Assembly: GCA_024508935.1 (NCBI GenBank)
Contig: JANINW010000006.1
Location: 91,873-155,872, forward strand
Length of the DNA: 64,000 bases
Direction of reading: 5' to 3'
From: Flavipsychrobacter sp.
Lineage (GTDB): Bacteria > Bacteroidota > Bacteroidia > Chitinophagales > Chitinophagaceae
Shown here piece after piece: positions 7,669 through 64,000 of this stretch. Both the position numbers and the translations under genes were made by a program. Within the stretch, counting starts at the first letter, position 1. Each line of letters opens with the position of its first letter. The notes under the pieces are model-generated. The model ran no database searches. It had not been told where the DNA came from and saw only the letters and a list, made by a program, of their open reading frames with translations.

Positions 7669-8400
7669 ATGAAAAGCCTGGCATTTCTACTTCTTTGCAT
7701 CATTTTCAGCAATAGCACCACAGCACAATTCAACGACTCTACGTTTTATTATTTCAGCCTGAATGCTAATGGCTCGGTGACCAAAACCACCGACGGCACC
7801 ACCTACCTATTGAACAATGGCCTGAAATTCAGTGTAAAGAAGAAGAGCGTAGTACTGAACAGCAATAACACCTGGGTATATGGCGCGCAGCAAGACAGGC
7901 TGGTGAATAACGATTATACTTCCACACTGGATTTTAATATCTACAAAACGCTGCCCCATTTCTATTATTGGGGATTGGGCAGCTATACCAGCAGCTATTC
8001 GCTAAAGATCATCAACCAGGTACAGGCTGGGACAGGTATTGCCTATAATATCATAGACAAACCCGGTTTTTTGCTGAATATAAGCGATGGGATACTGTAT
8101 GAACGGAGCGACCTTAACCTTGGAGACACAGCCAGGGATGTATACAATACTTTTCGTAATTCATTGCGGTTGCGCATACACCTGAAGATAAATACGATTA
8201 TAGGCTTCAACACCAATAATTTTCTTCAAAACTCGTTGAACTATGGGGACGACCATATTATCAGATCCAGCAGCTCACTATCATTCAAAATAAAAAAATG
8301 GCTGAGCCTGAATGCAGGACTTGACTACAATAAGGTAAGCCGCACTCAGAAAGAGAATCTATTGTTTACTTATGGACTATTGGTAGAAAACTATTTCTAA
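7669..8400 (+). CDS. Outer-membrane beta-barrel protein (DUF481-like)
   Basis: Signal peptide, alternating aromatic/polar strands, C-terminal Y-x-L-x-x-x-Y-F. Confidence 0.7.
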   Translation: MKSLAFLLLCIIFSNSTTAQFNDSTFYYFSLNANGSVTKTTDGTTYLLNNGLKFSVKKKSVVLNSNNTWVYGAQQDRLVNNDYTSTLDFNIYKTLPHFYYWGLGSYTSSYSLKIINQVQAGTGIAYNIIDKPGFLLNISDGILYERSDLNLGDTARDVYNTFRNSLRLRIHLKINTIIGFNTNNFLQNSLNYGDDHIIRSSSSLSFKIKKWLSLNAGLDYNKVSRTQKENLLFTYGLLVENYF

Positions 8401-8436
8401 AAAATAAGCGCCAGCCGGTAGCCGGTTGGCGCTTAT
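8398..8436 (-). terminator. Intrinsic terminator (T-tract on the minus strand; possibly bidirectional)
   Basis: ATAAGCGCCAGCCGG-TAG-CCGGTTGGCGCTTAT 15-bp stem, preceded by an A6 run. Confidence 0.85.
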
Positions 8437-8465
8437 TAGTAAGTCAAAGTGATAGCGAAAAAAAA

Positions 8466-8642
8466 TTACTCTTCTTCTGTTTCGTCTTCTGCATCAAGGT
8501 CTTCTTCATCATCAAAATCTTCGTCTGTTTCATCCAGTTCATCTTCCTGCTCATTTTGCTCTGCGGCAGATGATCCGGTAGTGCTGCGGGGGTCTTGTTC
8601 CAGTTCGTTGTCCTGCTCTTGCGGGTGGTTGCTCGTTGTCAT
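8466..8642 (-). CDS. 58-aa hyperacidic small protein (missed by the ORF track)
   Basis: ATG...TAA reads MTTSNHPQEQDNELEQDPRSTTGSSAAEQNEQEDELDETDEDFDDEEDLDAEDETEEE; A-rich leader with A at -3; terminator just downstream. Confidence 0.75.
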   Translation of the reverse strand: MTTSNHPQEQDNELEQDPRSTTGSSAAEQNEQEDELDETDEDFDDEEDLDAEDETEEE

Positions 8643-8696
8643 GATTGCTGCTTTTTTTGAATGTTTATATTGCGTATTTATAATAAACGGCAGTAC

Positions 8697-8882
8697 TTAC
8701 GCTGTAAGCCTGTACCTGTTTTCCATTTCCTGCAGCGAAATAGCTATATGCCTTTTTACCACCTTGCTGCTGCACAGCTGAATGCCGGCGCTTAATAATG
8801 TTCTCAAATCCACAGAGGCGGGATGTTGCATTACTTTCCTTGCTTGTTCTTTCCTGAAGTAAGAGATATTCCTGCTTTTCAT
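8697..8882 (-). CDS. 61-aa basic hypothetical protein
   Basis: ATG 8882 reads MKSRNISYFRKEQARKVMQHPASVDLRTLLSAGIQLCSSKVVKRHIAISLQEMENRYRLTA; co-oriented and tightly packed between the TspO-like gene and the acidic ORF. Confidence 0.5.
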   Translation of the reverse strand: MKSRNISYFRKEQARKVMQHPASVDLRTLLSAGIQLCSSKVVKRHIAISLQEMENRYRLTA

Positions 8883-8931
8883 GTTCTTCAATTTTGTAAT
8901 AGAGAACTTAATAAAACCATGCCAAGGCAGG

Positions 8932-9732
8932 TTACCTCTCTGAGAATTTTTTATGATAAGGTTGCTTCAGGCGGCTGTAGCGGATGGCCATACCTAAGGA
9001 CCATGCGGCCGAAACAATGCCCGCCAGCAATGCTGCATCAGACACATCCTGCACATCTGCACGGTAGGCTACAGATATGGCAATGGTAGCCCAGGCCACT
9101 ACTGCAGGGTATAGCCAGTCGCGGTAGGCTACACTCATTATTGCACCGAGTAATACAGCTATGAATAGGGTTATCATAGCCAGTGTCACCTCAGGTATAG
9201 GCCCGCCATGCCAGCCTATGTGCACGCAGTAAATAGATATATTGGCAATAGTAGCCACAGATATCCAGCCCATAAATATGCTGAAGGGAACCGTAAGCCA
9301 CTGGCTGTGATGATGGTTGTTTACTGCAGGCTTTACAATGCGGAACTGCACTAAACCGAAAATAAAATTGGCAATAATAATGAGCAGCGCCCAGCCTATA
9401 TACTCAAACCGGAATAGCACCTGCCATACTGCATTCAGCACATTTACCGCCATAAAAGGATAAGCCAGCCTGTCGTACAAGGCATCATTTCGCTGAGATG
9501 GCAGTACCTGGTAAATAGCATAGATAATAAAGCCCAGGAATATAATGCCCCATATAGCGAAAGCATAACCGGCAGGTACAAACAGGCTGCGGTTTTCATA
9601 GGTTACCTGTACAATACTTTTTGCACCGCCCATGGGCACTACCTGGGTGATATTACAAAAAGCTATAGCCAAAATAGTAACTATAAGTACTGTCCACCTG
9701 AGCCCTGCATTGTTTCTTACTGATGTTTCCAT
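8932..9732 (-). CDS. TspO/MBR-related tryptophan-rich membrane protein (long form)
   Basis: PAGYAFAIWGIIF, LNAVWQVLF and PFSIFMGWISVATIAN motifs; about 8 TM segments. Confidence 0.8.
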   Translation of the reverse strand: METSVRNNAGLRWTVLIVTILAIAFCNITQVVPMGGAKSIVQVTYENRSLFVPAGYAFAIWGIIFLGFIIYAIYQVLPSQRNDALYDRLAYPFMAVNVLNAVWQVLFRFEYIGWALLIIIANFIFGLVQFRIVKPAVNNHHHSQWLTVPFSIFMGWISVATIANISIYCVHIGWHGGPIPEVTLAMITLFIAVLLGAIMSVAYRDWLYPAVVAWATIAISVAYRADVQDVSDAALLAGIVSAAWSLGMAIRYSRLKQPYHKKFSER

Positions 9733-9998
9733 TTCAAAAATGTTTTACGATCTTATTTTAATAAAAAGGATGCCCCTAACAGTTAACAATGAAGCCCCCG
9801 TGTTTCTCACACCAAAAACAGGTGCCCATTTATAAATGTTTAAGCGCGGTAATACAATGGTAATTTTGTGTACCCTATCCACATAAAAAGAAAATACACA
9901 GTCTAAACAACTGAAAATCAATTTAAATAAAAATTTATCCATAACCCCTCAACCAAACACCGGCGCTTAATGAAACTCCTTAACTTTACCCGGGGATA

Positions 9999-11333
9999 AT
10001 GCTTTACGCTATTGTAGATATTGAAACGACGGGGAGTTATGCTGCAGCAAACGGCATTACGGAGATAGCTATTGTGATACATGATGGCAAACAGGTGCTC
10101 AATTATTACGAGACACTGGTCAATCCCCAGCAACCCATTCCACGCTTCATCCAATCGCTTACCGGCATTAATGACCGTATGGTAGCCCACGCGCCTGCAT
10201 TTCATGAAGTGGCCGGGCAGATACACGAATTGCTGCAGAACAAAGTATTTGTAGCACACAATGTCAATTTCGATTATTCTTTTCTGAAGCACCAGCTGCA
10301 AACGGTAGGATATGAACTGGAAGCACGTAAGCTCTGTACCGTAAGACTGGCGCGCAAGATATTACCGGGTTATCCCAGCTATAGCCTTGGTAAACTTTGT
10401 CATTATATCGGTATCGGTATTGCCAACCATCACCGTGCCGGCGGCGACGCACTGGCCACCGCCGAACTGTTTGGCCTGCTGGTGCAAAACGATAAGCACG
10501 GCGTAATACCCGGTATGCTGAAAGGCCGCAACCTGGAGCAATACCTGCCGCCCAATGTACCGGTAGAGCAGGTAGACAACCTGCCAACCACGCCGGGTGT
10601 CTATTATTTTTACAATGGCAGCGGCAAGATCATTTACATAGGCAAGGCGGTAAATATTGCCAAACGCATTCGCAGCCATTTCAGCAATAACAAAGCAGGA
10701 AAACAAAAGCAGGATTTCCTGCGCGAGATACACCGTATCAGCTATACAGAATGTGCTACCGAACTGATGGCGCACATACTGGAGAGCACAGAGATACGCA
10801 AGATATGGCCGGTGCACAACCGCAGCCAGCGGGGATACCTGCCTAAATTCGGCCTGTTTGTATACGAAGACCAGCAAGGGTATAAACGCCTGGGTATCGA
10901 AAAGAACAAGCACTATTTTAAAGCGGTGCATACTTTCAATACACTTATTGAAGGGCAAAACCAATTGCGTACTATGGTCAGTTCTTTTGAGCTGTGCAGC
11001 CGCCTTTGCAACATTGCCAGGGTTGCCGACCCGGAATACAACCTGCCTGATGTGGAAGAGTATAACGAACGTGTAGACGAAGCCATCAGCTGGCTGCAGG
11101 CCCAGTTGCCAACCTTTGCACTGGTAGACAAAGGAATGAACGAAAATGAGCAGAGCTGCATCCTGATGAAAAAAGGCAATTTTTATGGCATGGGCTACCT
11201 CACAGACGGTGTAATGCCGGAAACGGTAGATAAGTTACAGCAGCAACTGGAACCCTACCAGGACAATGACTATATACGCAACCTGATATACAAGCACGCC
11301 AGCACTTACCCTGATAAGTGTGTTGCACTTTAG
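9999..11333 (+). CDS. DEDDh 3'-5' exonuclease (DnaQ-like) fused to a GIY-YIG (UvrC/Cho N-terminal-like) nuclease
   Basis: IVDIETTG, HNVNFD, HHRAGGDA; PGVYYF...IIYIGKAVNI.KRIRSHF. Confidence 0.9.
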   Translation: MLYAIVDIETTGSYAAANGITEIAIVIHDGKQVLNYYETLVNPQQPIPRFIQSLTGINDRMVAHAPAFHEVAGQIHELLQNKVFVAHNVNFDYSFLKHQLQTVGYELEARKLCTVRLARKILPGYPSYSLGKLCHYIGIGIANHHRAGGDALATAELFGLLVQNDKHGVIPGMLKGRNLEQYLPPNVPVEQVDNLPTTPGVYYFYNGSGKIIYIGKAVNIAKRIRSHFSNNKAGKQKQDFLREIHRISYTECATELMAHILESTEIRKIWPVHNRSQRGYLPKFGLFVYEDQQGYKRLGIEKNKHYFKAVHTFNTLIEGQNQLRTMVSSFELCSRLCNIARVADPEYNLPDVEEYNERVDEAISWLQAQLPTFALVDKGMNENEQSCILMKKGNFYGMGYLTDGVMPETVDKLQQQLEPYQDNDYIRNLIYKHASTYPDKCVAL

Positions 11334-11343
11334 CTAAATACCG

Positions 11344-13377
11344 CTATTGCGCCAGCCAATATTTACGCAGCAGCCATTCGGCCACAGCAAACAGCAGCAC
11401 CAAAAAGAAATACCATTTCCAGTCTACCAGTGGTACCGTTTCCGCATTGGTCTGTATCACCGGTTTGATATTCGTGTTCTTAGAAATGCTGTCGTAGAGG
11501 CTGCCTACAGCCGATGCCGGCACAAAAGACCCGTTGTATTTTTTAGCCAGTGAATACAGCAAAGGAAAATCAGCGCCTGTTTCCATAAATTCCAACGGCA
11601 TGCTTTCTACAACAAAACTGCCACTTACCGTGTAGGTCTTGCCATTATAAGCAGCCTGTGCGTTATAGGTATAAGTTCCACCTGCCCGCACCCCGATATT
11701 AATGCGGTAAGCACTGCCGTTTTTTTCCATGCTGTAAGCCTGTTTATTGCCGGCACTATCTGCAATGCGCAATTGCACATCTGCTGTGTTTACCTGCTCG
11801 TTATTGGCATTCAGCAAATAGGCATCCAGCGTTATGGCTTCCTGGTCGCTCCACACATATTTAGGCAGCACTACGCGGAAGGGTTTCTCAGCATTATTTG
11901 CTGTAAGAAAAGATACTGTTTGGCGAATGCATTCATCAATCACTTCATGCTTGCCAAAGTTCTTGTATTCATATAAGCGCCAGCGCCAGATACCTTCACC
12001 AATAAGCATAGCTACCGGCACATTGCTTTGCTGCAGCATCCACAGCGGCATAGGCTCCCCGCTACGCTGCCGGAGCAATACATCTGTGTTGGGCAATGCT
12101 TTTACATTGCCCACCGGCATATTTAACGGCGGCATTTTGTCTAATACAGCCGGCAGGCTTTGTGGTAAAGTAAAGCTGCTGAACGCTGTATTATAGCTTG
12201 CAAATACATCGCGCAACGCGCCGGGGTTCATATTAAGGTTAGCAGGTTTAGGCAGCGAGGCTAATGCACCAAAATTATTTTGTGTGCCCACTATATACCA
12301 TACCGGCTTATGCGATGCGGCTACCAATTGCGATACATTGTCGCTGAGACCCGGCAATTGGTGCAGGATCACCATGTCATAACCGTCGAAAGAAGACGGC
12401 AGGTTATCGGCAGTGCGGATAGTGAGTTTGAAATTATCCATACCGCTCAAGGCCTCCCTTATCGCGTTTACATCAGGATGCGGTGCAGCTGCTGCCAGCA
12501 GTATATTCTTTTTTTCATCCACCACTTCTACAAACACATCACGACGGTTGTTTGTAATATTAGCCTCCCCGTCAGCTACAGGTATGCTTACCACATAATG
12601 ATGCAAACCGGCAACAGCAGCTTTAACACTAAAGGAAACAGCCCTGTCGAACCTGTCTGCATTCACTGAAACCGGCGTTGCTGATAGCACATTGCCGCTC
12701 TCCAATAATTGGGCACTGTTATTATATCCATTGCAAAGCTGCGCCAGCACATCGGCCCGTATTTCGAACTGGCTGTTAAGTGCTACTGTTTTATTGGCAT
12801 ACACATTTGCTATACGCAGGTCCTTTTGCGCTGCACTATCCCCAAGGCCAACCGTGTATACCGGGTTCTGGAAAGATAGCTGCTGGTAGGCAGGGTTATT
12901 CCCTTCATTATACCGGCCATCGGTAGCCAGTATAACAGCGCCCAGGTTTTGGGCACCATAAAACTCTTGTGCCTTAGCTAAAGCAGCAGCTATATCTGTT
13001 GAAGTTTGTCTGTATTGAAAAAGGCTGTCTGCCTGCACACTATGCCCAAAGCCCCAGCGCACTACCCTGTAGGTGCCGGATAATTTGTCGAGTAATTGCT
13101 GCGCATTCTTTTGGTATGCTGCCGTATCCTTATCCAAAGCCCGGGCTACCGATTGAGAATTGTCCTGCAGAAATAGTACAACAGGCTTCTGTGTCTCATT
13201 CCTGCTGATGGTAATGTAAGGAGCTAAAAGTAATAACAAAGTAAGCAGCACTACTATGCTGCGTAACGCAGCTGTAAGCCAGGGATAAGGAACTTCGCGC
13301 TTTTTATCCTTGCGGTACACCCAGTACCCGGCACCTGCCGATAGGATAATAGCTATAAACCAATAAAGCCATTGCAT
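11344..13377 (-). CDS. Membrane-anchored VWA-domain protein
   Basis: N- and C-terminal TM segments, MIDAS-like DNSQS and ILATDG, C-terminal LFAVAEWLLRK. Confidence 0.75.
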   Translation of the reverse strand: MQWLYWFIAIILSAGAGYWVYRKDKKREVPYPWLTAALRSIVVLLTLLLLLAPYITISRNETQKPVVLFLQDNSQSVARALDKDTAAYQKNAQQLLDKLSGTYRVVRWGFGHSVQADSLFQYRQTSTDIAAALAKAQEFYGAQNLGAVILATDGRYNEGNNPAYQQLSFQNPVYTVGLGDSAAQKDLRIANVYANKTVALNSQFEIRADVLAQLCNGYNNSAQLLESGNVLSATPVSVNADRFDRAVSFSVKAAVAGLHHYVVSIPVADGEANITNNRRDVFVEVVDEKKNILLAAAAPHPDVNAIREALSGMDNFKLTIRTADNLPSSFDGYDMVILHQLPGLSDNVSQLVAASHKPVWYIVGTQNNFGALASLPKPANLNMNPGALRDVFASYNTAFSSFTLPQSLPAVLDKMPPLNMPVGNVKALPNTDVLLRQRSGEPMPLWMLQQSNVPVAMLIGEGIWRWRLYEYKNFGKHEVIDECIRQTVSFLTANNAEKPFRVVLPKYVWSDQEAITLDAYLLNANNEQVNTADVQLRIADSAGNKQAYSMEKNGSAYRINIGVRAGGTYTYNAQAAYNGKTYTVSGSFVVESMPLEFMETGADFPLLYSLAKKYNGSFVPASAVGSLYDSISKNTNIKPVIQTNAETVPLVDWKWYFFLVLLFAVAEWLLRKYWLAQ

Positions 13378-58106: not shown

Positions 58107-58796
58107 CTATATAATGCCTTCATCTGCCATGCTAAGGTATTTTGTACCGGCCACTATAAGGTGGTCTAATAAACTGATATCCATCCACTCTGCTGCCTGC
58201 TTCAACTTCTTCGTCAGCTCTTTATCTGCCCCGCTTGGCTGGGTATTGCCCGAAGGGTGGTTGTGCGCTATAATAAGTTTATTGGCATTGTACAGCAACG
58301 CATTTTTTAAGATAATGCGGATGTCAGCGACAGTACCTGTCATGCCGCCACTGCTTATCAGCTCATGCCGGAGCAACCTATTGGCCTGGTTGATGTAAAA
58401 AACACAAAACACTTCATGGTTCAGGTCTCGCATAAGAGGAATAGCGATCTCTGCTATGTCAGCACTGCTGCCAATAGTATCGCGCTGCAAGGCTTCGCCC
58501 ATCTGGCGTCTCCTGCCAAGCTCTAATGCCGCAGCTATGGTTATAGCCCGCGCTTCACCTATACCCTTCGTCTTCTTCAATTCGTTTACCGACAAACGGC
58601 CAAGTTCATGCAGGTTATTAGCGGCCAATGCAAGCACTTCACGCGCCAGGTCCAATGCAGATTTTTCTTTGGTGCCACTCGCTATAAGGATAGCGAGTAA
58701 TTCCGCATCACTTAGTGCTGCAGCGCCTTTCTGCTGCATTTTCTCGCGTGGGCGTTCATCTTCTGCCCAATTCTTTATACTTGTCCCTGGGTTCAT
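58107..58796 (-). CDS. radC: RadC-like JAB-domain protein
   Basis: ERPREK, LSDAELLAILI..G, GIGEARA, HNHPSG..PS..D, LLDHLI. Confidence 0.95.
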   Translation of the reverse strand: MNPGTSIKNWAEDERPREKMQQKGAAALSDAELLAILIASGTKEKSALDLAREVLALAANNLHELGRLSVNELKKTKGIGEARAITIAAALELGRRRQMGEALQRDTIGSSADIAEIAIPLMRDLNHEVFCVFYINQANRLLRHELISSGGMTGTVADIRIILKNALLYNANKLIIAHNHPSGNTQPSGADKELTKKLKQAAEWMDISLLDHLIVAGTKYLSMADEGII

Positions 58797-59093
58797 TTTT
58801 GTGGGTTGTTATATTACCGGTAAATCATATTACATATAGCTAAAACAGGCAACTGCACCTGCAATACATAGTACAAATGGTACGCAGAACTAAAGTATTC
58901 ATTATTAGCCTGTTGAACAAACTATTATGACGGCCCTGGCAGATACATAACAGGATTATCCTTTTTTATTGTAAATACAAGGATGATTTAATTGTTAAAT
59001 AGCGCTGATTTGTTGACAACTAAATTAGAAGCTTTTCACTTTATTGTGTACCTTGTAGTATATCAATTATTTAAGGGGGATAAGAGCACTGTT

Positions 59094-59495
59094 TTGAAAC
59101 AAATTGAATACATATACCTGGCCGATGACGACAGCGATGATTGTTATCTTTTCCAGGAAGCGCTGAATGAGGTAAATGACTACATAAGGCTGAATACCGC
59201 AGAAGACGGGCTGGTATTGATGGACACATTACACAAAGACACCCGCCGCCCCGATATTATTTTCCTGGATATAAATATGCCCGGTAAGAACGGCTTTGAA
59301 TGCCTTGAGGAGATCCGCTCAGCAAAAGAACTACGTAAAATACCGGTGGTAGTATTATCTACATCAGATGCGCAGGAGTCTATTGATAAGGCGTATGAAA
59401 ATGGTGCTAACTGGTATGTACAAAAACCTACCAGCTTTAAAGGATTGAAAAAACTCATCAGCCATTGCCTGGAGCGTGACTGGGAACGCATATAA
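59094..59495 (+). CDS. Stand-alone response regulator (Rcp1/CheY-like), phytochrome-associated
   Basis: LADDDSDD, IFLDINMP, VVLSTS, GAN.YVQKP; no in-frame ATG before the domain, so TTG 59094 is the probable start (ORF opens at 58992). Confidence 0.88.
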   Translation: MKQIEYIYLADDDSDDCYLFQEALNEVNDYIRLNTAEDGLVLMDTLHKDTRRPDIIFLDINMPGKNGFECLEEIRSAKELRKIPVVVLSTSDAQESIDKAYENGANWYVQKPTSFKGLKKLISHCLERDWERI

Positions 59496-59544
59496 TTTTC
59501 CCGATTTTTATAATGCAGTTTAAATCATTTAAGTATCATTGTGC

Positions 59545-60123
59545 ATGACTGATATAAATGCACACAAAGAATCGTTTCTTAAAGAACTAAGAGCGCGTAC
59601 TGACGCCAATCACAAAGCACTTGAACAAAACCCGTATTCCGAAAGGCTAATGAGCCCGGATGTTACAGTAGAAGACTATAAAATATACCTGGAGAAAATG
59701 TATGGGATCATCATGCCTTTTGAGCAAGATATTCAACCAAAACTCTCCCATATTGTTACAGATATGGCAAACAGGCAGAAACACCATTTGCTGTCAAATG
59801 ACCTGGAGATGCTGGGCAGCAACACAGAAAATATACCACAGTATCATTTCAGTATTGCTAACGAAGCTGCTGCGCTGGGAAGCATGTATGTGCTGGAAGG
59901 TTCTACCATGGGCGGAATGGTGATACAAAAACACGTAAGCAAACTGGATGTGCCGGTGCAATATTTTACTTCATACGGCAGCAATACTGCTATGATGTGG
60001 CGCACCTTTATTGATACCCTTACCACCTATGCCGTAACACAAAACAAACAGGAGGAGATCATTGATAGCGCGGTCGCCACCTTTAAAACAATGGATAACT
60101 GGCTATCAGGGAGACAATCATAA
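59545..60123 (+). CDS. bphO: Biliverdin-producing heme oxygenase
   Basis: LRARTDANHKALE (proximal His), ALGSMYVLEGSTMGG distal helix; directly upstream of the phytochrome. Confidence 0.93.
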   Translation: MTDINAHKESFLKELRARTDANHKALEQNPYSERLMSPDVTVEDYKIYLEKMYGIIMPFEQDIQPKLSHIVTDMANRQKHHLLSNDLEMLGSNTENIPQYHFSIANEAAALGSMYVLEGSTMGGMVIQKHVSKLDVPVQYFTSYGSNTAMMWRTFIDTLTTYAVTQNKQEEIIDSAVATFKTMDNWLSGRQS

Positions 60124-60126
60124 ACC

Positions 60127-62399
60127 ATGAACATCAGGGACATCGTAAATAAGGACATTGTAAACCTTACCAACTGTGAAAGTGAACCCATACACATACC
60201 GGGCAGCATACAACCGCACGGCTGCCTGCTGGCCATAGCAGAGAAAGAACATACCATTCTTTTTTGCAGCGCCAATACCAAAGATTATATAGGAATAGAG
60301 CCTGCATTCCTGCTGAATAAAAATCTGGACCAGGTATTTTCCACCAATGATTGCAATAACATTTTGCAAGCGGCTTCTGCCCCTGCTATAGATAATACCG
60401 CATTACCCACTGCCCATATAAACAATACAGATTTCAATATTACCATCAATAGAAGTGGCAATTTATTGATACTGGAATTTGAACCATTCCCTGACGGCAA
60501 ACTTCATCTACCAAACCTCTATACTCAAACAAAAAAATTCACCGCATTCATTGAACAATGCAAAACACTGCGCGCCCTTTGCCAGGCTGTAGCTGAAGAG
60601 ACAAGGAACCTGACCGGTTATGACAGGGTGATGATATACCGCTTTGACGCAGATTATAACGGCGAAGTATTTGCAGAAAGCAAACGTGATGACCTGGAAG
60701 CTTTCCTGGGCCTGCACTACCCGCATACAGACATACCCGTGCAGGCAAGGGAACTGTACATGCGCAATCTTTCGCGTATGATAGCTGATGTAAACTATGA
60801 CCCGGTTCCCATTCTTACCACTACCGGTGACACAGACAACCGTACATTAGACCTGAGTCATGCAGTATTGAGAAGCGTATCACCAATACATATAGAATAC
60901 CTGAAAAACATGGGTGTTGGCGCCACCCTTACCATATCGCTTATTCATAATAAAAAACTGTGGGGGCTCATCTCCTGCCATCACTACGCTTCGCACAACC
61001 TACCGCACTATACACGCCTTGCAGCACAGTTACAAGGCCATTTTCTTACATCGCAAATAAATGTACGGGAGGTAGCAGAAGAATATGACCTTACCCACAC
61101 CAGCGATGCTTACCTGAATGACCTGCAAGACCTGTTGCTTACCAATGGTAGTTTTGTAAAAAACATCATTAATGCACCGGCACTATTGAAACTGGTAAAT
61201 GCAGACGGATGTGCTATTATACACCAGGGCAAGGTTATGCATGCAGGTGAAACCCCAACTAAGCAGGAAATACTGAACCTGGCTATATGGCTGTCAGAAA
61301 ACAGGCCCTCCGGCAAACTGCATACACACAAATTATCAGAAGTATACCCACCGGCCGCTAAAAGTGCGCGGGCAGCCGGTATTATTTATCATGCCTTAAG
61401 CGGCAAACCCGGAGACGGTATTATATGGTTCAGAAAAGAAGTGGAACAAACCGTTAACTGGGGTGGCAACCCTGCCGAAGCTGTTATTAAGAATGCAGCA
61501 GATGGAAAACTATCGCCGCGTAAATCATTTGCGCTTTGGAAACAGATAGTAAAATTGCAAAGCCTGCATTGGAGTAATGCAGAAATAAATGCAGCATCCA
61601 ATTTTGCACAGGCATTCGATAAACAACTCAGTCTTTACTTCCTGGGGCAGGAGGAAGACAAGTACCGCAAACTAAGTGAAGAATTGCTGCAGGCAAATAA
61701 TGAACTGGCAAACTTCAACTGGATAACGACACACGACCTTAAAGAACCTTTGAGAAAAATACAGGTCTTTGCATCGAGGATATTAGACGATGAAAATGCA
61801 AAAGCCATCAACCTGGTAACAGACTCTGCAAACCGGATGAAAGCTGCCGCACAACGCATGCAGGAGCTGATAGAGGATGTATTGCTGTATTCGAATATTG
61901 CCAACAAGGAAAAGAGCTTTGTACCTACCGATCTTAATGAAGAATGGAATGCCGTAAAGACCGAGTATACCGAAGAAATATTTGAGCGGAATGTAATGAT
62001 AGAAGAAGATAACTTACCTACCATCACTGCCATCCCTTTCCAGGTAAGGCAGTTGTTTGTAAACCTGCTGAGCAACGCTATAAAATTTGCCAGGGAAGAT
62101 GAGCCACTGCATATAACACTGGAAACAGAAAAAATAAAGGGCAGCGATACCAAAATAAAAAGCCTCTCGCCGCAAAAGAGCTATTACAAAATTTGTTTCA
62201 CCGATAATGGCATTGGCTTTGACAATGCATATAACGAGAAAATTTTCAACTTGTTCAACAGGCTTAATGCAGCGAAAAAATACAGCGGTACAGGTATAGG
62301 ACTGGCTATTTGTAAAAAGATAATGGAAAATCACAGCGGGGCCATTACAGCATCCGGCAAAACAGATAAAGGAGCTACGTTTTGTTTATATTTTCCTGC

Positions 62400-62403
<4 letters not shown>
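60127..62403 (+). CDS. bphP: Bacteriophytochrome (PAS-GAF-PHY-histidine kinase)
   Basis: LTNC17ESEPIHIPGSIQPHG, GYDRVMIYRF, YPHTDIP.QAR.LY, RSVSPIH.EYLKNMG, SPRKSF tongue, THDLKEPLR H-box, GTGIGL. Confidence 0.96.

Positions 62404-64000
<1,597 letters not shown>

Follow-up and report, generated by a model that had tools for sequence, protein, structure and literature searches.

A predicted red/far-red light-sensing operon in Flavipsychrobacter belongs to a Bacteroidota clade of phytochromes with a shared PHTDIP motif

A likely biliverdin-based light sensor

We analyzed a 64,000-nt stretch of the genome of Flavipsychrobacter sp. (assembly GCA_024508935.1, contig JANINW010000006.1, positions 91,873 to 155,872). 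We refer to this stretch as the window, and coordinates are positions within the window unless stated otherwise. Three adjacent open reading frames on the + strand (58992/59094-59495, 59539/59545-60123, and 60127-62403, the first two with alternative starts) fill positions 59094-62403. They encode a single-domain response regulator (RR), a heme oxygenase (HO) in the role of BphO, and the bacteriophytochrome histidine kinase BphP. We think it very likely that these genes are expressed as a single operon, RR-bphO-bphP, and that their products form a functional two-component sensor of red and far-red light that uses biliverdin. This reading is supported by the domains and signature residues of the proteins, by the co-conservation of the three genes, and by purifying selection. 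A first-pass annotation, made from the letters of the window alone, had proposed a complete module of this kind in a member of the Bacteroidota; the three open reading frames, their Pfam domains, and the full-length match of BphP bear this out, and the host belongs to the Chitinophagaceae. Its family also takes in a genome whose BphP sequence, in the alignment used for the tree below, is identical to that of Filimonas zeae.

The bphP gene (60127..62403, + strand) begins with ATG and encodes 758 amino acids, with five Pfam domains above their cut-offs. From the N-terminus, these are PAS_2 (82 bits; residues 17-120, 60175..60486, starting from Cys17 at 60175-60177); GAF (52 bits; residues 148-299, 60568..61023), which would form the bilin pocket; PHY (153 bits; residues 337-496, 61135..61614), which contains the tongue motifs; and HisKA (31 bits) and HATPase_c (69 bits), which make up the kinase output (61729..62397). 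Residues 12-753 align full length with solved bacteriophytochromes at E = 8e-120, which excludes chance similarity, and residues 12-495 align with many solved photosensory core modules (PCMs). No other gene in the genome contains PHY.

The residues that the first-pass annotation had singled out (Cys17, PHTDIP, the GAF histidine His255, PRKSF, and His536 of the H-box) are all present. Cys17 lies in LTNCESEPIH and is the predicted attachment site for biliverdin; the pattern xxNCExEPIH is conserved across the clade of Bacteroidota phytochromes that is described below. The GAF domain contains Tyr198-Pro-His200-Thr-Asp202-Ile-Pro204 (60718-60738), Ile254-His255 within SPIHIEY (60886-60891), and His285 within SCHH (60979-60981). 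The tongue of the PHY domain includes WGGNP (residues 445-449) and PRKSF (residues 464-468; 61516-61530), and these motifs are conserved in the clade as well. His536 (61732-61734) is within THDLKEPLRKI; the clade conserves this H-box as xHDLKEPLRKI, a sequence like that of Cph1. The N, G1, F, and G2 boxes of the HATPase are complete: NLLSNAIKF (with N650), DNGIGF at 693, FNLFNRL, and GTGIGL at 721. Judged by these features, BphP has a complete photosensory core, an N-terminal cysteine with no GAF cysteine, an intact pocket and tongue, and a full set of kinase boxes.

The position in the GAF domain that holds a cysteine in Cph1 and in DCB proteins is Ile254 in the window's BphP. Because it lacks the GAF cysteine, this protein is BphP-like rather than Cph1-like or DCB-like. 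The C259I variant of FiDCB bound biliverdin, with little to no binding of phycocyanobilin (PMC11880981), and the context in the window's protein (SVSP-I-HIEYL) is the same as in FiDCB-C259I. Given this context and the missing GAF cysteine, we expect the chromophore to be biliverdin, attached to Cys17.

The HO gene (59545..60123, + strand) encodes 192 amino acids from the ATG at 59545, with an alternative TTG start at 59539. The protein matches Heme_oxygenase (PF01126) at 56 bits, as compared with a cut-off of 23 bits, and it is the sole PF01126 gene in this 3.76-Mb, 99.7%-complete genome. His23 and Gly119/Gly123 align with a histidine of Neisseria HemO (1j77) and with its glycine-containing segment EGSNLGAA, which we take to be the proximal heme ligand and the glycines of the distal helix. 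The HO gene adjoins bphP in 34 of 42 loci from the clade. Its fold, proximal histidine, distal-helix glycines, and linkage to bphP suggest that this is a BphO-type enzyme.

The RR gene (59094..59495, + strand) encodes 133 amino acids from a TTG start. Response_reg (72 bits) is its sole Pfam domain. The functional residues, as read from the translation and mapped, are the acidic pocket at Asp11-13, the phospho-acceptor Asp59, Thr90, and Lys111. The top eight solved matches include RcpA (1k68), Rcp1 (1i3c/1jlk), RcpB (1k66), and a fusion of DrBphP to its regulator (8avv). With only a receiver domain, a complete acidic pocket, and relatives that are encoded with phytochromes, the RR is probably of the Rcp1/RcpA/BphR type.

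The genes are closely spaced: 49 nt separate the stop codon of the RR from the ATG of HO at 59545, and 3 nt separate the stop codon of HO from the ATG of bphP. We found no terminator-like hairpin in either gap.

Conservation of the three genes

We clustered the open reading frames within 6 kb of bphP across 42 loci from the clade, and only BphP, HO, and RR were shared across genera. These three are kept together across about 17 genus-level labels, and all of the other neighbors reflect synteny at the level of the genus. Since no fourth family is conserved across genera, the output partner is not encoded alongside.

A sister species has a BphP that is 93% identical, in a region whose synteny is identical from folC to enolase. 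Between the two species, dN/dS is 0.014 for the RR (dS = 0.34), 0.11 for HO (dS = 0.52), and 0.052 for BphP (dS = 0.62). These values indicate strong purifying selection on all three genes.

Two other genomes from the genus keep folC-radC and lack, beyond radC, the RR-HO-BphP cluster, the beta-barrel gene that follows it, and enolase. One of these two congeners has a different phytochrome of about 510 amino acids elsewhere in its genome, and the other has none. The cluster sits at a synteny breakpoint, with a real gain or loss within the genus, in either direction. In the corresponding loci (L111, G141:C1:611000-625000; L112, G249:C1:2734000-2748500), synteny breaks exactly at the position of the phytochrome cluster. 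In G141, radC is followed by a 1068-amino-acid open reading frame with a histidine-kinase-like C-terminus. We considered a recent transfer from Dyadobacter and did not adopt it: the window's sequence is not nested within Dyadobacter, and its GC content (42.8% vs. 45.1%) and GC3 were taken as matching those of the neighboring genes.

A Bacteroidota clade with the PHTDIP motif

The first-pass annotation had implied that such systems are rare in this phylum, and this did not hold up. We found a PHY gene in 52 of 301 sampled genomes of Chitinophagaceae (17%; 37 of 151 genera) and in 24 of 401 evenly drawn genomes of Bacteroidota (6%). Homologs of the window's BphP number in the thousands. The nearest named ones are from Dyadobacter (51-56% identity), and several of these are already annotated as bacteriophytochromes or as Cph1-like kinases. 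Also, Buchberger and Lamparter (2015) included 19 phytochromes from Bacteroidetes in a phylogenetic analysis and proposed that they are the most ancient type (PMC4422448).

We placed the window's BphP in a maximum-likelihood tree with a total of 100 photosensory modules, and it falls within a clade of 43 sequences that are all from Bacteroidota (SH-aLRT 100). The members are from Dyadobacter, Chitinophaga, Filimonas, Flavipsychrobacter, Emticicia, Ohtaekwangia, Flavobacterium, and others. Within the clade, the window's sequence branches outside of Dyadobacter, and its pairing with a sequence from an uncultured member of the Bacteroidetes is weak (81). All 43 members of the clade have PHTDIP; the remaining 57 sequences all lack it and have PASDIP, PDSDIP, PATDIP, or similar motifs. 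The gene order RR-HO-BphP is found in 25 of the 43 members, including 18 of 20 Dyadobacter loci, and the RR is upstream of bphP in 32 of 43. Other orders occur elsewhere in Bacteroidota: BphP-RR-HO in Spirosoma, Larkinella, and Fibrella, and HO-BphP-RR in other Chitinophagaceae. The regulator-first order and the PHTDIP motif, which had been reported as unusual features of this locus, are indeed present, but they are not peculiar to it: the comparison of sequences identifies them as shared signatures of one Bacteroidota clade.

These results suggest that the locus is an intact and ordinary member of a widespread and already annotated kind of Bacteroidota phytochrome. What is mildly new is the delimitation of the regulator-first clade with PHTDIP. 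What phytochromes do in bacteria that lack photosynthesis is still not well defined, and this locus adds a clean and intact example. The clade is coherent, is present in all of the sampled Dyadobacter loci, and is open to study in cultured type strains. On its own, the locus does not bring any outstanding question within reach of a test, and a specialist in phytochromes would not find it surprising.

Two other patterns appeared in these comparisons. First, eight loci from Chitinophagaceae (L004, L009, L010, L012, L013, L016, L017, and L018) contain frames of about 502-507 amino acids with PAS-GAF-PHY only, and several of these have a heme oxygenase directly upstream. These proteins form a well-supported clade of their own, apart from the kinase-bearing phytochromes of Bacteroidota. 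Second, near-identical phytochromes sometimes carry different family labels: L041 and L042 are from Ohtaekwangia and from an "uncultured Chitinophaga" metagenome-assembled genome (MAG), and L047 and L049 are from Emticicia and from a "Chitinophaga pinensis" MAG. Either these reflect recent transfers, or contigs in the MAGs are mis-binned or mislabeled.

Proposed mechanism and alternative explanations

We propose that HO would open heme to biliverdin IXa, which would be seated in the GAF pocket and covalently linked to Cys17. Red and far-red light would then interconvert the Pr and Pfr forms, with the tongue of the PHY domain (PRKSF) refolding against Asp202. The change in the tongue would set the balance of kinase and phosphatase activity in the HisKA/HATPase dimer, which would autophosphorylate on His536, and the phosphoryl group would pass from His536 to Asp59 of the co-encoded, receiver-only RR. 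Since the RR lacks an output domain, it must act through an unlinked partner. It would do so either by protein-protein contact or by passing on or draining phosphate.

Several observations weigh against a straightforward version of this proposal. Pseudomonas aeruginosa BphP reportedly signals to AlgB, which is not encoded adjacent to it, so the true output of the window's BphP could bypass the adjacent RR. The score of BphP against NCBIfam's model for "bacteriophytochrome BphP" (NF041576) is 347 bits, over residues 10-491, and the cut-off is 1040 bits, so the protein is a homolog and not an equivalog of that narrow group. A literature search for "PHTDIP" returned nothing, and the clade-specific His200, near an aspartate that contacts the chromophore, has no characterized precedent. 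Finally, the PCM of the bathy phytochrome Agp2 (6g1y) scores 292 bits, slightly above the PCMs of the canonical Agp1 (275 bits) and DrBphP (257 bits), so there is no clean split. Because bathy and canonical scores overlap, the dark state is uncertain.

The adjacent RR might be a phosphate sink or shuttle, with the response running through another, distant regulator by cross-phosphorylation or a phosphorelay. The missing output domain fits this idea, as does the finding that no further gene accompanies the module from genus to genus. On the other hand, the RR and BphP are tightly co-conserved, as seen from the position of the RR upstream of bphP in most of the clade, and constraint is stronger on the RR than on HO or BphP; both facts fit a specific role with a protein partner. 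We view a sink or shuttle as possible but not especially likely. It overlaps with signaling from BphP through the RR, and does not exclude it.

For the photochemistry, the dark state is probably the canonical Pr form. This is favored because the top solved relatives of BphP are Pr-state proteins and because its HisKA kinase resembles that of Cph1. These relatives score 404 bits (8uph), 374 bits (FiDCB), 317 bits (6bap), and 316 bits (Cph1), and we take 8uph, 6bap, and Cph1 to be Pr-ground-state proteins. FiDCB and Cph1-like behavior correspond to a Pr dark state (PMC11880981). The same module could instead be bathy, with a thermally stable Pfr dark state and a kinase that is switched by far-red light. 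Besides the score of Agp2, His200 is two residues from the tongue-contacting Asp202 and could shift the relative stability of Pr and Pfr. However, the kinase is not of the HWE type, nor does it resemble the other outputs that are frequent among bathy proteins (PMC4422448). Together with the top relatives, this makes a bathy sensor somewhat unlikely. We lean towards Pr being the more active form of the kinase, by analogy to the reports for Cph1 and Agp1.

A stronger claim about His200 would be that the clade is a Bacteroidota-only subfamily, marked by this invariant residue, the Cph1-like H-box, and the regulator-first operon, in which His200 gives distinct photochemistry and the RR feeds a phylum-specific output. 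For example, dark reversion might depend on pH or be unusually fast or slow, or the equilibrium between Pr and Pfr might be shifted, and the output would be gliding motility or surface polysaccharide, for instance. The argument for this is the conservation pattern, and we consider it unlikely.

Next, the module might govern light-induced synthesis of carotenoids, as proposed for BphP/BphR from Deinococcus radiodurans. There are no carotenoid or photosynthesis genes near the locus, as the first-pass annotation had stated. The genome does have the means to make carotenoids: the same contig contains crtB, crtI, a lycopene cyclase, and a hydroxylase, about 90 kb upstream and outside the window (at about 58-63 kb of the contig; positions 8048-13194 of our locus L105). 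This crt cluster has a MerR-type regulator of its own, with a domain that binds B12 (similar to LitR/CarH), and an ECF sigma factor; these are the usual light switch of such clusters. Also, none of the loci from the clade has crt genes with the module (within 6 kb of bphP). Control of carotenoid synthesis by this phytochrome is therefore quite unlikely. As a separate observation, the crt cluster points to a second, B12-based route for sensing light in this genome. The genome also encodes one photolyase, and we found no reaction-center gene, no rhodopsin above the cut-off, and no BLUF protein in it.

Last, a photochemically inactive or repurposed sensor, which would respond to heme or biliverdin, redox state, or temperature with the architecture of a phytochrome, is very improbable: His200 is an uncharacterized substitution and some bacterial phytochromes do show strong effects of temperature on kinase activity, but all of the residues known to be required for binding the bilin and for photoconversion are intact, and the clade conserves them, a dedicated HO is retained, and the genes are under strong purifying selection.

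As for the literature on outputs, the first-pass annotation knew of no defined output for BphP in this phylum, and our search did not find one for any Bacteroidota phytochrome. For experimental work on phytochromes in Bacteroidota or Dyadobacter, the search turned up nothing beyond genome notes and a single phylogeny. We dismissed PMC13599544 as a functional study because the strain concerned does not have a phytochrome.

The start of the RR gene, the leader, and the neighboring genes

The frame of the RR is open from a TTG at 58992, and in the sister species a gene caller picked a 161-amino-acid form. We rejected the longer open reading frame because of the pattern of substitutions in 58992-59093. 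In comparison to the sister locus (L101), five of six differences in this segment would be non-synonymous in the frame of the RR, in contrast to the low dN/dS of the RR proper, so the segment is probably not coding. Also, homologs of the RR from the clade begin 7-8 residues ahead of the ADDD motif. Both lines of evidence favor the start at TTG 59094, which the first-pass annotation had chosen.

Upstream of this start, a conserved non-coding leader or promoter region (58888..59093, + strand) lies between the RR gene and radC, which is divergently transcribed. The leader is about 92% identical to that of the sister locus, while dS in the adjacent genes is 0.34-0.62; it resembles regulatory DNA under constraint or a 5' leader. 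Searches for specific elements were negative. Upstream of the RR there is no exact match to the -7 motif of Bacteroidota (TAnnTTTG), and matches to sigma-70-type promoters are at chance level only. A scan of 58600-62600 with Rfam at E ≤ 1 found no RNA family, and a search for repeats in the leader found weak palindromes only, with no convincing operator.

Downstream of bphP is a convergent gene for a 211-amino-acid beta-barrel protein. The stop codons of the two genes overlap on the palindrome TTAA at 62400-62403, and we found no terminator-like hairpin at this junction. The beta-barrel protein is 85% identical to its counterpart in the sister species, as compared with 98-99% for the housekeeping neighbors.

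Comparison with known systems

The closest relatives with the same organization are in Dyadobacter (for example, D. fermentans, D. soli, and D. psychrotolerans) and in other Cytophagales and Chitinophagales, which have the same RR-HO-BphP order. The BphP proteins of Dyadobacter and related orthologs are 52-56% identical to the window's protein over the full length, and they share PHTDIP, xHDLKEPLRKI, and NCESEPIH. In contrast to these, the window's BphP branches separately within the clade.

The best solved relative is 8uph/8upk (404 bits, for residues 12-753 of the window's BphP), which is presumably BphP2 from the myxobacterium Stigmatella aurantiaca. It shares the PAS-GAF-PHY-HisKA-HATPase layout, the N-terminal cysteine, SPIH, CHH, PRxSF, and the HDLKEPLR H-box. 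It differs in having PATDIP, with an alanine at the position of the window's His200, and in its operon context.

The closest solved entry that contains only a PCM is from the cyanobacterial dual-Cys protein FiDCB (PDB 9jry; 374 bits). Cys17 in LTNC is common to both proteins, as is the SVSP-x-HIEYL context. Similarly, the window's H-box resembles that of Cph1 from Synechocystis, and its RR resembles Rcp1 and RcpA. Both FiDCB and Cph1 have a GAF cysteine where the window's protein has Ile254, so the latter should behave like FiDCB-C259I.

Finally, bphO-bphP-bphR from Deinococcus radiodurans, which is not a phototroph, encodes the same three functions in one operon. The order of the genes is different (HO-BphP-RR), the motif is PASDIP, and the carotenoid output that was proposed for D. 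radiodurans is unlikely in the window's genome. Nevertheless, DrBphP matches the window's BphP at 330 bits, and the regulator that is fused to DrBphP in 8avv matches the window's RR.

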